From a virus: DNA of 64,000 bases. Positions 40,590-46,642 of this stretch are shown piece after piece. The stretch lies in the IMG/VR virus record IMGVR_UViG_2140918012_000003; one strand, written 5' to 3'. A model generated the notes under the pieces. It did not search any database and was not told the origin of the DNA. It saw only the letters and a list, made by a program, of their open reading frames with translations. Positions within the stretch are counted from its first letter, which is position 1. Each line of letters opens with the position of its first letter. A program made the translations under genes and the position numbers.

Positions 40590-40626
40590 ATTTCAGGTAC
40601 TTAGAATCAGCTAAGTAGCTGGAAAT
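40590..40626. other. candidate tyrosine-recombinase (att-like) core site
   Basis: ATTTCAGGTACTTAG-aatcag-CTAAGTAGCTGGAAAT: imperfect inverted arms around a 6-bp spacer, about 100 bp upstream of the recombinase gene. Confidence 0.45.
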
Positions 40627-40722
40627 ACTGTAAGTTATTGATATCATTAGGGAATACGATAACTTTCCCTTTCCAATCAAATAAGCATTTGTTTGGATAA
40701 GAATATGTGATAGCGTGTTTGC

Positions 40723-42057
40723 ATGGGTTCCGAGGCAGACAAAAGCACTGAAAAAGCCCTAGTAATCGCATCTAGCGCTGAAATCAGCGAAAATTCGCCT
40801 ACTAGCACAGGGTTGGTAATTCATAATAGCCCAGCTAATAATAGAGGGATAGTCAGTCGGCTCGCCGCGCCCTCGACCGAGCTAGCCCCAAGGCGCATCA
40901 CCGCAGCATCAGCCGGCGTCCAGCCCCCTAAGGCAGCGCATGTATTCACCTTCTCTATAGCTGACATCGATGATAGCCTACGCAACAACGCCAAATTAGC
41001 GTACGAGGCTTGGCTTAACCACAAACCAAAATCTAAGAGAGCCTACGTCGATAGTTTCAAAGCGTTCATGCGTTTCGTTGGAGCCACGACAACAGAAGAC
41101 GCAGCAGCCTTCCTCTTAGCTGGTGGCCATGTGCATGCTCAGGCCATCTTGGCAAATTTTGCCAAGCACTTGTTAACCGCTCAACGGGTCACGATGACCG
41201 GCCGTAGAACGATTGCGCCTGACTTAACCAGGTTGCCAACCACGGTACGGAATAGGCTGGCTGCGGTGCGATCCTTTTTGAAGTCAGCTAACACCAACAA
41301 TGTAATCGACTGGACTGTAGAATTCAAACCAAAAGACCACAACATACCAGCAGCCAGGCCATACTCAAAAGTAGAAGGCCCAGGCGCCAAGATGCTGGAG
41401 GTTATCTACGACCACTATACGAATGGGCTTGATGCGGCACGAGCTTCTGGAGATTCAAAAACCGCGACCAGGCTGGCTCGGGACTTTGCTATCTTGTCTC
41501 TCATGATGTTTGCAGCCCTGCGGCGTAAAGAGATAGCTGGTCTAGAAATCACCGATATTGACCTGACTGACTTGTCCAGCGCTCGCGTTAACATCCTAGG
41601 AAAAGGGCGAGAGCACAAGGAATGGTTCAATGTTACGAAAGAAGCGGTCATGCCGATATCTGAATGGTTGACCTACCGGTCAACCGTCGAGGGAGCAGAT
41701 CGGCATAATAACCTCTTCATTTCTTTGTCCACACGCAGCGATGAAAAAGGTACACCTCTTCGCCTCAACGCCTACAACGATATTCTTGCTGAACTAGAAA
41801 TAACCCTAGGCTTGCCACCTGGTGTGTACCTGAAGCCTCATGGCTTTCGGCATACTGCGATTACATACGCCTATGAAAATTACGGAGAGCAGGCTGCTAT
41901 CGCCCTGGCACGACATGCGGATCTTGCGACCACGATGCGCTACATCGATAGTATCAGGAAAGCCCTTGCAAGTCTAGAAGCTATGCGTGGGTTGGCAGAA
42001 AAAATAGCAAGGAGACGACCCGCCGTGATGGCGCTACCAATCTCCTATTCGCCCTGA
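40723..42057 (+). CDS. tyrosine recombinase/integrase (XerC/D-like)
   Basis: catalytic residues present: ALRRKEI (R), GKG (K), PHGFRH (HxxR), ARHADLATTMRY (H, Y). Confidence 0.93.
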   Translation: MGSEADKSTEKALVIASSAEISENSPTSTGLVIHNSPANNRGIVSRLAAPSTELAPRRITAASAGVQPPKAAHVFTFSIADIDDSLRNNAKLAYEAWLNHKPKSKRAYVDSFKAFMRFVGATTTEDAAAFLLAGGHVHAQAILANFAKHLLTAQRVTMTGRRTIAPDLTRLPTTVRNRLAAVRSFLKSANTNNVIDWTVEFKPKDHNIPAARPYSKVEGPGAKMLEVIYDHYTNGLDAARASGDSKTATRLARDFAILSLMMFAALRRKEIAGLEITDIDLTDLSSARVNILGKGREHKEWFNVTKEAVMPISEWLTYRSTVEGADRHNNLFISLSTRSDEKGTPLRLNAYNDILAELEITLGLPPGVYLKPHGFRHTAITYAYENYGEQAAIALARHADLATTMRYIDSIRKALASLEAMRGLAEKIARRRPAVMALPISYSP

Positions 42058-42099
42058 AACTGACGGTCGCTAGTCGCTAAAATGGACCAACCACCCAAC

Positions 42100-44286
42100 T
42101 TGCACTGTTCGCCTAAATTTCCAGTCAGGGACCTCGGTCAGTTGCACTGTTCGCCTAGTCAGGCTTACCTCACAGAAGTGCGGCACGCAAGCGCCGAATC
42201 GCGCTGGCCAAGGACCGCTTCTTGGCCGACAGGCCGAACCTGATCATACTCTCGATCTGAAAGTAGGTCAGGTCTCTATTGACCGCGTTAACGCTGTCAG
42301 CGACCTGCTGCTCTAGTTCTGCCTCGGGCAGTTCCTCTACAAATCCGAGTAGGTTGAGAAGATTTTCACGGGTTCCCTAGGTCACGCCTGGGCATCTTTA
42401 CTTAGCTCTTCAATGAACGAACGGTCGGTTTACGACCCTTCCATTTACTATCGCGAACAGGCTTGATCGTACACAACGGGCCATCCGGTCAGCACACACG
42501 ATCAAACACGGGTGGACGCAATTGCACTGTTCGCCAGAGAGTCGTCGCATGTCAGATTGCACTGTTTGCCTTGAAGACCTGCGTTGGCTTCCAGGATTAC
42601 TGCACTGTTCACCGAACATTTCACGTCGCGGGTATTTTTCTCTTGCACTGTTCGCCGCTAAGTTTTTTAATCTACGAGTACTTCCTTTTGCACTATTCGC
42701 TTGCGGGCCTGCACTGTTCACCCTAAATGGTCGCCTTTCGCGCCAAGTACTTGCTTGCACTGTTTGCCGCCAAAGTCAACATGGTCATCCACGACACTTG
42801 CACTGTTCTTCCCAAAGTCGAGGAAACAACTCGACGAGATAGCTTGCACTGTTTGCCACACTTGAGGAATGATCTGCTCAGAAACCGTGGAAGTCGCATT
42901 CAGGTCGATTGACGGCGCCCGCTCAATGGCTTCGCGCAGGGCCGCTCCAGAGTCGCATTGCACTATTCGCTAAAAAGGTTATGGCCAAAAAGAGAAACTT
43001 GCACTATTCGCACCTCAGGCACAACGTCGATCTGGGGCGACTCAAAAACTTGCACTGTTCGCTTAAATTCGCCGTCATGCTTTTTCGCCTAAGTTGAGAA
43101 AATCGAGCGCTCTGCACTATTCGCCTGAATCAGCGTGAAAACCATGGCGCTCCTGGACCGACCTTGCACTGTTCGCCTGATAACAAAGCTGCGTGGGCCA
43201 AGCTGCGGCAGCACAAATTGCACTGTTCGCCTAAATTGCCTCTCGCCACATAACCTCAACTAGACGTGTACATTATTGCACTGTTCGCGTCAAGACCTTT
43301 TTGAACAAAGGCCAGGTCTCCCAGATGGATTGCACTGTTTGCCAAATTTAGCAAGGGCGGCTGCACATGCTGCACTGTTCACCTTAAAGAGCGTCGCGTC
43401 GTACACCTTGCACTGTTTCGCCTAAACCCTGAGAGCGTTCAGACCGCCTTTCCGTATTGCACTGTCCTTGAAAAAGTACGACAACCGCTGGTCTTGCATT
43501 GTTCGCCAGACTAATACGAGGGCGCGCTTTCTTCTTGCACTGTTTTGCCATCGACGGCGCCGAGTAATTGCACTGTTTCGCCTAAACCATGTTCTTCCCC
43601 AGAAGAACTCCGTCTTGCACTATTCGCAGACCTGATACCCCTTGCACTGCTCGCCATCCTCTTTAACCACCAGGTAGAACCGCCACTGGATTTGCACTGC
43701 TTCGCCAGCCAGTCCAACGAGATCATCTTACACTGTTCGCCACAGAGGAACCATCATGCGCTATTGCACTGTATCGCGACTTTGCACAACGGGAAACTAG
43801 TCGGAATCGAACCGAATTTGCACTACTCGCTAAGAAGATTGAAGATGTTGTCTTTGCACTGTTTTAGCACAAATTCCTGAGACGAATTGCATTGCTCGCC
43901 TAGAAGCCGAAAGTGGTAGACGGCTTGCACTGTTTCGCCAACACACTCTCATCGTCGTCGGCACTTGCACTGTTTTGCCTAAAGCTTAATCACGTCCGCA
44001 ATCTGAATTGCACTGCTCGCGTTTAGGGGAGCGTCTTCCGATCTTAGCGCTGCCCTTCAAGGGAGGATGTTTGTGCCAACAGCTTTCTTGCACTGTTCAC
44101 CTGATGAATCATGCTCCACATCAGGCCAGCTTCTCGCAGTCGCCATGCTCGGATAATCGAATTTGCACTGCTCACCTGAACCCATCACAAACAGTCGTGA
44201 CGCTCGCCGCTTGCACTGTTCTGCCCTATTTCAAAATTATCAAAGATCGAATGTTCACCTGGGACTACTCTACTGCATTATTCGCC
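42100..44286 (-). CRISPR. non-canonical CRISPR-like array: about 40 x 14-bp repeat (+ strand TTGCACTGTTCGCC; - strand GGCGAACAGTGCAA) with unique spacers
   Basis: 40 copies counted by eye from 42100 to 44273; 31 of 39 periods are 33-58 bp; adjacent to a Cas12f-like gene and an anti-repeat hairpin. Confidence 0.75.
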
Positions 44287-44298
44287 AGTAAGAAAAGT

Positions 44299-44384
44299 GG
44301 GGTGCCCGCCGATTGGCGAACTTACGCGGAGCAACGTCCACGCATCCGGCACAAGTGCAATTGGCCGTCGGAGACGGGCACCCC
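44299..44384 (-). ncRNA. putative tracr/scaffold RNA with split anti-repeat
   Basis: 10-bp perfect terminal stem (GGGGTGCCCG/CGGGCACCCC) plus CCGA/TCGG; contains GGCGAAC (44315-21) and AGTGCAA (44354-60), the two halves of the repeat in inverted orientation; inner stem needs G-U pairs available only on the - strand. Confidence 0.7.
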
Positions 44385-44396
44385 GAATTTGTGTGG

Positions 44397-45005
44397 TTAC
44401 GCGGCGACAGCCTCCTGGGTGCGCTCCACGTTTACGCCCAGCCCCATAAGGCCACCACAGGCGATATCCACGGCAGTCCTGTGCTTGCCTGGATCTAGCT
44501 CTGCAATGATCGAGAGTACATCAATGGCGCGTTGCAGTTTGTCAGAAACTACGCCCCTTTTTTGTTTGGGCACCGCAACACCAAGGGCCAGGGCTTCTTC
44601 CCTCACGATATTGGCGACATGCCGATCTGAAGGTGTAGTGCCAGCTTCTGCTTGAAAAGACAGCAAGTGGGCTTTGACGTTTTCGTAGATGGCAGTACTG
44701 GCCTTCTTGGCAAGCTTCGGATCTGAAGCGTCAAGAGCACCGGCTAGAGCACACGCCCCAGCAAGACCAAGAGCATCGGCCCGCTTGCGCCCGTAGCGCT
44801 TAACGGCGCTATTATACTTGTTGTAAGTGGCCACCGAAACATGGAGCACTTCGCGCAGCAACTGGTCAAACGTCTTAAATTGGCCGACCCAGCTTTGCGA
44901 CTGGTCAAACTCCAAACACAGACCGAAGACCCGCAGCTTGGCCGCTTCGCCTTCTTTCTTGGCGTCCAGAATGTCAGTTACAAATGTTGCAAAGCTCTTT
45001 TTCAT
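44397..45005 (-). CDS. hypothetical protein, putative HTH DNA-binding accessory of the Cas12f-like locus
   Basis: 202 aa; ATGA overlap with the Cas12f-like gene; W..QFKTFDQLLREVLHVS..TY resembles phage HTH-type motifs. Confidence 0.7.
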   Translation of the reverse strand: MKKSFATFVTDILDAKKEGEAAKLRVFGLCLEFDQSQSWVGQFKTFDQLLREVLHVSVATYNKYNSAVKRYGRKRADALGLAGACALAGALDASDPKLAKKASTAIYENVKAHLLSFQAEAGTTPSDRHVANIVREEALALGVAVPKQKRGVVSDKLQRAIDVLSIIAELDPGKHRTAVDIACGGLMGLGVNVERTQEAVAA

Positions 45006-46603
45006 CGAATTTCCCCTTGCACGACCGCTGGAGCGGCTTTCTTCATGCGTGCGACCTTCATCTCGGCCTTGGTATTGCTGATCATCTTATCGGTGCGTGA
45101 GATAGCTTTGATAAGGGCAGCCTTGTATGGCTCGCCAGCGACCTTGGATGACAATAGCATGTTCTGGATGGAAGTCAACTCCAAATCGCCACTATGCTGA
45201 CAGTTGACGCACTCAAAAAAGCCATCCTTGGCGTCGTAGCCTACCACTTTGGGTAGACGCTTGATATTTTCCTTGCAAGTATGACTGCACACAGGGCATT
45301 TCTGCGAGATAAAAGCTGATGCCTCTTCGTTGACCTTGACCCCAGCCCTGCGGGTGAGCGCGTCAATCACACGGCCTTTCAATTCGGCCAGCGGGAACCT
45401 ACGCACGTAGGGTGCCAAATTCGGGTCGTCGGATTGGAAGGCTCCGAAATTATCGAGTAGCACAATACTAGCACCGTGGCGCTCAGCGAAGACCTGCACA
45501 GCTTTGGCTGCACGCCAAAGCTCTGTGTCGGTAAAGCGTGCCTCTTTATCGGAGAGCTTTTTCAGAGCAGCAAAATGCTTCTTCTTGCCTCGACCTGCGT
45601 GGGGTGTAGCGCTCAGGTCTTTTTGAATGAGCTTGCGCCGAGCATACATCTGCGATTTGAGGCGCACCAAATTCGTGCCTGGGTAGCTGCCCGTGGTCAC
45701 ATGGTTCTTCTTGTCGATCGCCAGGAACGACAGCATGTTCACGACGCCACGGTGAACAATCACGAGCGAGTCAGACTCTTCTTTTGCGAGCCGCGAAGAC
45801 TTGTAGGGAAGGCGCACGAACCATTTTTCGGGCTGGCCTGGCCGGCGCACCCGAGCAATTTGCAGGGCGCCTTTAGCATAGCCTTCGGCTTCTGGAACAT
45901 CGCTCTTGTCGTAGTCAATGGCCACGAGCTTTTTCAGCACCTCGACCATCGAGGCCACGCCACGGCCATGCAGGCTTTTACACACGAGGCGCATCTTGCC
46001 CTCACCGGGGCGCCAAGCCGAAGTTTCGATGACGACGTTCGTGTAGGTCTTGGGTTGACCCGTGCGAACGTCGGTTTTAGTCACTTCCTCAAAGAGCACA
46101 CGCCAGTTCCGGTTCCTGATCGTAAAAGGGACGTTACGTAGCAACGGGAAGGACGAATCGCCACGCAGAAGCGCGTTGAGCCTGTCACCGGCAAATTCCG
46201 AATCCACGATCCGCTTGGTAACGCTTGACCAGATATACTCGGTCAAGCCTGTAGCCTTCATGGCCTTTTCAACAGCCGTCTTGAACCCTACCGTGTCCCA
46301 GCACTCGGAAGGTAGCGGTACCTCTTGATCTTTGAGCATGGCGCGCTCATCAGCCGTAGAAAAGCGCATCTTGCCAGCCATACGCTGGTCCCGAAGCGAG
46401 ACAGCGATATCTGCGATAGCCACCTGAGCAGCCTTGCCGATATCACGGCTGGCAGTGCGTAGCTCTGCCCAGGCTTTCGTTCCGTCCGTTTTTTCAGGGC
46501 GGTAAAGCTCAAGCGTCATACAGGCGACCGGGTTTTTGGTCGGCTTGTGGACGCTGGATTCTTCTTCATCGAAATCATCGAGCGCGTCAGCAGCTTCTTG
46601 CAT
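45002..46603 (-). CDS. Cas12f/TnpB-family RNA-guided protein, predicted nuclease-inactive
   Basis: LLRGDSSFP, GRGKKK...LSDKEARF..., SQKCPVC and FECVNC zinc ribbon; RuvC positions read H287, D387, E478 (ORF-track numbering) in place of D/E/D; ATG 46603 is 7 nt after the -10 box. Confidence 0.85.
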   Translation of the reverse strand: MQEAADALDDFDEEESSVHKPTKNPVACMTLELYRPEKTDGTKAWAELRTASRDIGKAAQVAIADIAVSLRDQRMAGKMRFSTADERAMLKDQEVPLPSECWDTVGFKTAVEKAMKATGLTEYIWSSVTKRIVDSEFAGDRLNALLRGDSSFPLLRNVPFTIRNRNWRVLFEEVTKTDVRTGQPKTYTNVVIETSAWRPGEGKMRLVCKSLHGRGVASMVEVLKKLVAIDYDKSDVPEAEGYAKGALQIARVRRPGQPEKWFVRLPYKSSRLAKEESDSLVIVHRGVVNMLSFLAIDKKNHVTTGSYPGTNLVRLKSQMYARRKLIQKDLSATPHAGRGKKKHFAALKKLSDKEARFTDTELWRAAKAVQVFAERHGASIVLLDNFGAFQSDDPNLAPYVRRFPLAELKGRVIDALTRRAGVKVNEEASAFISQKCPVCSHTCKENIKRLPKVVGYDAKDGFFECVNCQHSGDLELTSIQNMLLSSKVAGEPYKAALIKAISRTDKMISNTKAEMKVARMKKAAPAVVQGEIR

Positions 46604-46610
46604 GTTGGTC

Positions 46611-46642
46611 ACTATACTCCTATGGTTCTTGACGTGTCAAGA
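46611..46642 (-). promoter_or_regulatory. promoter of the Cas12f-like operon with palindrome over the -35 box
   Basis: TTGACA-18-TATAGT on - strand; TCTTGAC-gt-GTCAAGA inverted repeat 46627-46642. Confidence 0.7.

Follow-up and report, generated by a model that had tools for sequence, protein, structure and literature searches.

Among CRISPR systems (the name stands for short palindromic repeats that are clustered and regularly interspaced), those of type V-F are built around Cas12f (formerly V-U3 or Cas14; AsCas12f, SpCas12f1, OsCas12f and Un1Cas12f1 among them), a small effector with a zinc-ribbon TNB domain and a D-E-D RuvC triad that works with a trans-activating CRISPR RNA (tracrRNA) pairing with the repeat, and their arrays consist of full repeats (~28–37 nt) alternating with uniform spacers. 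The adaptation module (cas1, cas2, cas4) is optional in V-F variants. A relative of these systems lies on the minus strand of IMG/VR virus record IMGVR_UViG_2140918012_000003, a stretch of 64,000 nucleotides of viral DNA referred to here as the window, and comprises a Cas12f-like effector, a small open reading frame (ORF) termed ORF202, a tracrRNA-like scaffold and an array of short repeats. The effector has the fold and domain order of type V-F, finds its best sequence, profile and structure matches there and is likewise a small protein with a zinc-ribbon TNB domain; adaptation genes, often missing in type V-F, were not found in the window, and pairing of a tracrRNA with the repeat is predicted from the sequence. 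The differences concern the catalytic triad, which reads H-D-D/E here, the array, in which 14-nt repeats are separated by spacers of 7–100 nt, and the setting, the system being phage-encoded and accompanied by the conserved accessory ORF202. Judged by its anatomy and by comparison with related loci, the locus is probably a phage-borne type V-F (Cas12f) derivative without adaptation genes, whose effector would act as an RNA-guided DNA binder served by an array of ~38 guide units.

The H-D-D triad and the carriage on mobile elements are shared with type V-M Cas12m2, whose RuvC domain coordinates one Mg ion and binds the non-target strand, leaves double-stranded DNA (dsDNA) uncut and silences by binding (PMC10442227). 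Silencing by tight binding, described for Cas12m2, is predicted only for the window system (PMC10442227, PMC11656645). PDB searches with the window effector reveal no sequence relation to Cas12m2 (to E 10 by sequence and E 1e-6 by profile), and as a fold match it ranks only 25th. Cas12m furthermore has no tracrRNA, processes its own precursor CRISPR RNA and uses canonical repeats, whereas the window system has a tracrRNA-like scaffold. In Bacteroidota, nuclease-dead Cas12f proteins (dCas12f) are linked to sigma-E or to CRISPR arrays, and a C-terminal truncation removes part of their RuvC domain (Hoffmann, Wiegand et al., Nature 2026; PMC13472631). These too are Cas12f-derived with an altered RuvC, and the RNA-guided DNA binding described for them is what is predicted here; guides of ~14 nt suffice in these systems and helix-turn-helix (HTH) proteins are often encoded nearby (PMC13472631). 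The effector family described here differs in being full length and phage-borne, the dCas12f structure 9n9c is its rank-20 fold match with no match by phmmer, and no sigma-factor family is matched among the 104 window ORFs of at least 75 aa that were scanned for Pfam families at E <= 1e-4. TldR proteins are likewise RNA-guided binders with a dead RuvC and hard-wired guides, some of them prophage-encoded and repressing host genes, but each has a single omega-RNA-type guide beside its gene, with neither a tracrRNA/repeat duplex nor an array. Viral mini-arrays and solitary repeat units (Racr RNAs) resemble the window array as short, repeat-derived units in phage genomes that lack adaptation genes; however, they consist of full repeats identical to those of the host and rely on or inhibit host Cas proteins, whereas the window phage supplies its own effector and tracrRNA together with ~38 units.

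The minus-strand unit runs in the order promoter, 536-aa effector, ORF202, structured RNA and array:

46611–46640, minus strand: sigma-70-like promoter serving the effector operon (TTGACA, 18 nt, TATAGT; 11 of 12 matches), with the start codon at most ~10 nt further on
45002–46612, minus strand: Cas12f-like effector, 536 aa from a GTG start or 533 aa from the ATG at 46603
44397–45005, minus strand: ORF202, predicted all-helical accessory, its start overlapping the effector stop by 4 nt (ATGA)
44272–44396, minus strand: tracrRNA-like scaffold (covariance model 96.6 bits, E 9e-26)
42100–44286, minus strand: array of 35–38 minimal repeats of 14 nt (motif scan and indel-tolerant parsing)
42157–42521, no strand assigned: 365-nt insertion in the array, which sets the last two repeats apart from the remainder
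40723–42057, plus strand: tyrosine recombinase of 444 aa (PF00589, E 1e-15), convergent with the array

An earlier note, made from the letters of this DNA, had described a minus-strand unit of a promoter at 46640, a Cas12f-like gene, a 202-aa ORF, an anti-repeat hairpin and repeats, and all of these could be located. Its reading of an RNA-guided module with a non-canonical RuvC is supported by the effector, the split anti-repeat scaffold and the short-repeat array, and its statement that the window contains no cas1, cas2 or cas4 holds, none of these families being matched among the 104 ORFs. Adaptation genes were not called in the fetched flanks of homologous effector loci either.

By sequence, profile and fold, the effector is a relative of Cas12f. 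PADLOC profiles for Cas12u3 (4e-23) and Cas12f (5e-20) match it over almost its full length, PDB searches retrieve SpCas12f1 (E 1e-11 by sequence; E 2e-21 in a profile search), and Foldseek places its AlphaFold model (mean predicted local distance difference test score, pLDDT, 85) beside AsCas12f, OsCas12f, SpCas12f1 and CnCas12f1 with E-values of 2e-18 to 1e-13, AsCas12f being the best match (2e-18) and Un1Cas12f1 also among the top ones. Structure-based identity to solved Cas12f proteins is at most ~16%, and the effector scores under the curated cut-offs of Pfam and NCBIfam. The protein is full length and retains both the zinc ribbon and the RuvC-III region. In a profile alignment to AsCas12f, H287, D387 and E480 take the places of D225, E324 and D401; the RuvC triad thus reads H-D-E and departs from D-E-D at all three positions, in agreement with the altered RuvC domain noticed earlier, and the family consensus is H-D-D. 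H287 and R288 do not vary among the 26 sequences of a family alignment and D387, D388 and D478 hardly vary, while the RuvC-III position, two residues after D478, is occupied by D in most members and by E480 in the window effector. Nor does the family show any variation at the zinc-ribbon cysteines C439, C442, C468 and C471.

Characterised Cas12 and TnpB enzymes no longer cleave once the RuvC-I aspartate is lost. With an invariant His-Arg in place of the first RuvC aspartate, this family is expected to bind without cutting, and target silencing through DNA binding, as seen with HDD-type Cas12m2, is the most likely activity of the effector complex. Alternatively, the H-D-D/E site could belong to an active nuclease that cuts or nicks DNA, in which case the locus would serve ordinary phage interference against rival elements. 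Such a nuclease would account for the strict conservation of H287, R288, D387, D388 and the RuvC-III acidic residue and for a zinc ribbon and full-length RuvC that are kept here, unlike in the C-terminally truncated dCas12f; the triad of one relative, in locus L019, even reads H-E-D. However, the loss of the RuvC-I aspartate, a position at which AsCas12f structure 7wju carries Ala, and the failure of HDD-type Cas12m2 to cut dsDNA (PMC10442227) make an active nuclease unlikely.

A search of 5.8 billion proteins returned ~26 homologues of the effector with 31–60% identity, all of them metagenomic and many located on contigs of 40–86 kb that carry phage genes. No relatives were found in reference genomes, and those in IMG/VR are distant only (23–25% identity). 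The effector of L019, one of the fetched related loci (prefixed L), is 35% identical to that of the window. Upstream of the closest effector homologue, in L011:1–130, a sequence that by eye resembles two tRNA genes is followed by a duplicated 24-nt element in the promoter region. In L015 and L016, a protein with an RRM_1 domain (E 1.5e-6) is encoded directly downstream of the effector.

The scaffold represents a conserved RNA of 105–125 nt that is predicted to form an outer stem and two hairpins, one of them small, and which was found by motif search and then captured in a covariance model built from 8 copies. The exact complement of the repeat halves AGTGCAA and GGCGAAC is present in two 7-nt blocks that this RNA leaves unpaired, TTGCACT and GTTCGCC, and the anti-repeat hairpin of the earlier note is thereby confirmed as part of the larger RNA at 44272–44396 (minus strand). 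The scaffold adjoins the effector in the window and in L001–L005, L011–L013 and L015–L018. The covariance model gives 13 matches across 11 loci and the window at 75–113 bits, with L018 found later, and it recovered the scaffolds of L015, L016, L017 and L018 although these had been left out of model building. Pairing extends to 97.4% of the cells in 11 distinct sequences, with compensatory changes in 20 of 32 pairs, both figures being somewhat inflated by the fitting of the alignment to the covariance model; when the partners are slid by 1–3 columns as a control, 35–44% are paired, and an independent RNAalifold run finds compensatory changes in 16 of the 32 pairs. A search with the scaffold pattern added one small contig in the metagenomes of the Joint Genome Institute (L018) and none in IMG/VR.

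Across loci, the first anti-repeat block is near-constant in the family, and the second is variable and tracks the repeat of its own locus. Cognate partners show complementary runs of 5–9 nt that average 7.2 nt, compared to an average of 3.7 nt between non-cognate ones (10 tracrRNA/repeat pairs). In L014, the most divergent locus, the scaffold blocks match a repeat that is wholly different. These observations provide strong comparative evidence for a predicted tracrRNA:repeat duplex that is split by a hairpin. In L003 (7738–7994 and 9478–10134), two tandem scaffold copies lie ahead of the effector; their variable anti-repeat blocks, CCTCATC and CTTCATC, match the array repeat variants GATGAGG and GATGAAG.

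With up to 3 mismatches allowed, the window contains 41 matches to the 14-nt motif TTGCACTGTTCGCC, read on the plus strand, compared to 7.8 expected and 15 in the largest shuffle, and 36 of the 41 fall within 42100–44286, all on the plus strand. On the minus strand the repeat reads GGCGAACAGTGCAA and is 14 nt long, or 15 nt in six units, where a 1-nt linker sits near the point at which the two halves meet; a linker of 0–1 nt occurs at the same place in other loci. Parsing with indels gives 35–38 units, somewhat fewer than the about 40 repeats of the earlier note, whose single orientation is upheld. The spacers range from 7 to 100 nt (median 29), and most are guide-sized (19–44 nt) and all different from one another. 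The 3' half of the repeat, AGTGCAA, has undergone only 7 changes in 245 positions (35 units), the 5' half is looser and the spacers are mutually unrelated; the repeat nearest the scaffold carries 3 mismatches. Tandem Repeats Finder does not detect the array because of its irregular spacing. In addition, on the minus strand many repeats follow a T-rich tract, T occupying each of positions -5 to -2 in 16–22 of the 38 units, and 31 of the 38 have G or T as the base right behind the repeat, features which may represent a processing signal or the remnant of a longer ancestral repeat. A 68-codon open frame within the insertion at 42157–42521 (42170–42376, minus strand) lacks a start codon, matches no family and may be a gene remnant.

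Related loci indicate how such an array may have arisen. Relatives of the window system carry ordinary arrays with a 37-nt repeat and ~36-nt spacers that abut the effector gene, to the extent that the first repeat of L001 includes the effector stop codon. Mini-repeats comprising only the last 12–14 nt are found at the distal array ends and around the effector gene in L001–L005, L013 and L015–L019, with short and irregular spacers, and the distal repeats of L003 and L004 lose their 5' part stepwise and keep the last 14 nt. The window array, which contains no full-length repeat at all, is the extreme, all-mini-repeat case of this family trait. It has probably been eroded from a canonical array of 37-nt repeats, with selection keeping only the 3' end predicted to pair with the tracrRNA. 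L001 and L002 share an identical effector and an identical distal mini-array and differ in their full repeats, nine in the former (L001:8892–9790) and one in the latter (L002:2554–2869), a difference that stems either from a recent gain of spacers or from a deletion between repeats. In this pair, the canonical part of the array is dynamic and the mini part fixed. A search for a pattern of two repeats retrieved only an unrelated 18-nt tandem repeat from a cyanobacterial metagenome-assembled genome (L022) in genome contigs and nothing in IMG/VR.

Mini-repeats also occur outside arrays. In L015:6900–11860 and L016:9530–9910, mini-repeats of the form GGAATGCAA are scattered through the intergenic gaps of the operon instead of forming an array. 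Downstream of the scaffold, a mini-repeat overlaps or just precedes the effector start codon in L012:7993–8006, L018:~825–840, L005:8001–8050, L013:8008–8020 and L014:140–190. The leader of the effector messenger RNA in these five loci resembles a natural single-guide RNA and may mediate translational or transcriptional autoregulation.

Mini-repeats of this kind bear on the possibility that the array is an RNA decoy or regulator, in which the units titrate the tracrRNA or the effector, either the phage's own for dosage control and autoregulation or those of a related V-F system in a host or competitor, in the manner of an anti-CRISPR. The 2–17 nt spacers between mini-repeats in relatives (L019, L013 and L005) are consistent with this possibility, as is the position of mini-repeats at the effector start codon in L005, L012, L013, L018 and L014, and precedents exist in viral repeat mimics (solitary-repeat Racr RNAs) and in a phage dead Cas9 with a tracrRNA (PMC11656645). 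However, the window spacers are mostly 19–44 nt long and all different, and a sponge needs no 38 unique spacers; the phage has a complete, co-varying set of effector, tracrRNA and repeat, and relatives carry canonical arrays with ~36-nt spacers. A decoy role for the array is therefore considered improbable. Even less credit is given to a non-functional relic of a decayed CRISPR array, which we regard as very unlikely: degenerate repeats, irregular spacing, the 365-nt insertion and the 3 mismatches in the scaffold-proximal repeat would fit decay, but the 3' half of the repeat is near-invariant over 35 units with unrelated flanks, the effector, ORF202 and scaffold are intact behind a strong promoter, and the minimal handle has been kept in many loci.

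The second protein of the operon, ORF202, has no match in Pfam, NCBIfam, PHROG or PADLOC. Its homologues are few: a word-based search found only ORF202 itself, and an exhaustive profile search found only 16 representatives, the best of which are those of L019 and L020 (31%). In L011, a homologue with 40% identity follows the closest effector homologue, with the scaffold next to it, and in L019 and L020 the 31%-identical homologue lies just downstream of a Cas12f-like gene. Since ORF202 recurs downstream of effectors in two other lineages, comparison of the loci argues that it is a genuine, lineage-specific accessory of the effector. No homologue is present in L014, and the ORF202 alignment is too divergent for a locus scan. 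The structure model is all-helical (pLDDT 89) and resembles ParB/SopB DNA-binding domains and DUF3102, at non-significant scores (ParB/SopB fold matches E > 1). The earlier note had called this gene product an HTH protein; its conservation as an accessory is upheld by the 40% and 31% homologues, and the HTH fold, for which there is no significant fold match, is left as a weak lead. ORF202-like clusters also give a hint of an Acidobacteriota host. In L019:977–4978, a SNF2/DEAD helicase gene overlaps the effector upstream, and downstream of the effector three tandem mini-repeats 2–9 nt apart precede the ORF202 homologue.

Taken as an RNA-guided DNA binder, the system could operate as follows. 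The minus-strand operon would encode the effector and ORF202, and its transcript would continue into the scaffold and then into the array, to be processed into guide units that each begin with the 14-nt minimal repeat. Pairing would join the two repeat halves to the two anti-repeat blocks that the scaffold leaves single-stranded, in a hairpin-interrupted duplex akin to the pair of repeat:anti-repeat duplexes found in Cas12f guide RNAs. The effector would bind this repeat:scaffold handle, and the sequence 3' of the repeat would serve as the guide. The array would thus constitute a hard-wired guide library, with targets predicted not in the 64-kb window but in genes of the host or in competing mobile elements. 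Going one step further, we tentatively propose a phage-encoded, Cas1-Cas2-independent form of natural multiplex CRISPR interference, in which a non-cleaving, HDD-type Cas12f relative and ORF202 would use ~38 hard-wired guides, their repeats selected down to the bare 14-nt handle, to silence numerous loci of the host or of rival elements simultaneously; this fuller version is possible and is held with less confidence than the RNA-guided binder as such.

Several results weigh against an RNA-guided binder. No guide target emerged from any search: comparison of the guides with the window stays at chance level (four 13-mers against ~2 expected), cultured phage and plasmid collections give chance-level matches only, all fetched related loci yield nothing convincing, and the one spacer compared with IMG/VR has no match. 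Spacers of 2–17 nt, which occur in some units of the window array as well as in relatives, are shorter than a usual guide requires. Thermodynamic co-folding of the tracrRNA with one unit does not by itself favour pairing, and the substitutions in the repeats lean weakly towards those that preserve G-U pairs (19, versus 12 pair-breaking transitions). Finally, H, D and D/E are strongly conserved in the RuvC domain and could have a catalytic or RNA-processing role.

The surroundings of the system are those of a phage genome. The window encodes RIIA, RIIB, an RNA ligase, a DNA methyltransferase and an integrase, with small genes arranged in two convergent blocks, and most of its large ORFs have no PHROG match. 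Part of the cargo is unusual for a phage, with domain matches to Volactin, an MreB-like actin, thaumatin, CHRD, an NmrA-like protein, R2K ATP-grasp and a deaminase. Rfam and tRNA scans of the whole window were empty. Strand usage and GC skew switch at the array region, which prompted consideration of the array as an iteron, parS or origin element; this reading was rejected, the repeat co-varying with the RNA anti-repeat across loci.

Adjacent to the array, the tyrosine recombinase (P0003) described in the earlier note as intact and convergent proved to be just that. It matches PF00589 (E 1e-15) and phrog_1 (6e-17), its best NCBIfam models are XerC, XerA and XerS, far under the cut-off, the motifs with the active-site R, H-x-x-R, H and Y are readable in its sequence, 43 nt separate its stop from the last repeat, and it is the sole Phage_integrase-family protein among the 104 ORFs. 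The proposed role of this enzyme as a part of the system is unsupported, and the expected co-occurrence of effector and recombinase across relatives was not seen. No recombinase is encoded in the fetched flanks of seven effector loci (L001–L004, L012, L015 and L016). In L005, L013 and L017, small recombinases of 235–272 aa lie 1–4 kb from the effector in varying orientation; those of L005 and L017 are orthologous to each other (48% identity), and those of L005 and L013 are not orthologues of the 444-aa window enzyme. The L005 and L017 recombinases (L005:5881–6618 and L017:3233–3940; 235–245 aa) contain an inserted, zinc-ribbon-like CxxC...CxxC segment with a weak match to DnaJ_CXXCXGXG. The window recombinase is probably the phage's own integrase or a Xer-type enzyme or resolvase, a neighbour and not a component, and the loose neighbourhood fits effector and recombinase both being located in a temperate-phage accessory or lysogeny region. 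An integron-like cassette array was considered and rejected: the best models of the recombinase are those of XerC, XerA and XerS, and the 14-nt units form no attC-like imperfect palindrome and match the tracrRNA instead. A recombinase-coupled system in the manner of CRISPR-associated transposons (CASTs) was likewise rejected, seven loci having no recombinase in their fetched flanks and three having non-orthologous ones.

Two models in the earlier note had given the recombinase a function in the system, and neither is borne out. According to the first, the enzyme replaces Cas1-Cas2 and inserts variable-length fragments at 14-bp sites, a notion to which the 43-nt distance between recombinase and array, the lack of cas1, cas2 and cas4 matches, the irregular spacer lengths and the unrelated small recombinases 1–4 kb from the effector in L005, L013 and L017 had lent some appeal. 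Against it, seven effector loci have arrays or mini-repeats with no recombinase in their flanks (L001 and L002 providing mini-repeat arrays without an adjacent one), the recombinases present elsewhere are not orthologous to that of the window, the 14-nt repeat offers no dyad-symmetric core site (an inverted repeat within the unit was not reported), and tracrRNA pairing would dictate the repeat sequence; erosion of canonical repeats accounts for the mini-repeats, and since these resemble the eroded ends of canonical arrays, no new insertion enzyme is needed, which leaves this model with hardly any credibility. Equally far-fetched is the second model, in which the dead effector guides the recombinase to targets for RNA-guided tyrosine recombination: adjacency in the window only and the general CAST precedent of dead effectors coupled to transposases are outweighed by convergent genes in separate operons, by the absence of conserved co-occurrence across relatives, by ORF202 rather than the recombinase being the conserved partner of the effector, and by P0003 being the only integrase-family gene in the window.

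Literature searches, subscription journals being outside their coverage, revealed no description of the phage effector family, of functional 14-nt repeats or of ORF202. The earlier statement that no described system has this combination applies only to the link with the recombinase, which is itself unsupported, and dead-Cas12 binders with arrays were already known. The window array illustrates array evolution after the loss of adaptation, the repeat apparently eroding to the part that pairs with the tracrRNA, and ORF202, present in three separate lineages, is a new candidate accessory protein of Cas12f. If the 14-nt handle suffices for guide loading, it would define the minimal repeat requirement of a Cas12f-type effector and represent the shortest functional CRISPR-type repeat, and it would offer a compact natural design for multiplexed guide arrays that is useful for miniature dCas12f tools. 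A phage equipped with dozens of fixed guides for a non-cutting effector would, if the proposal is true, be capable of large-scale host reprogramming or competitor exclusion.

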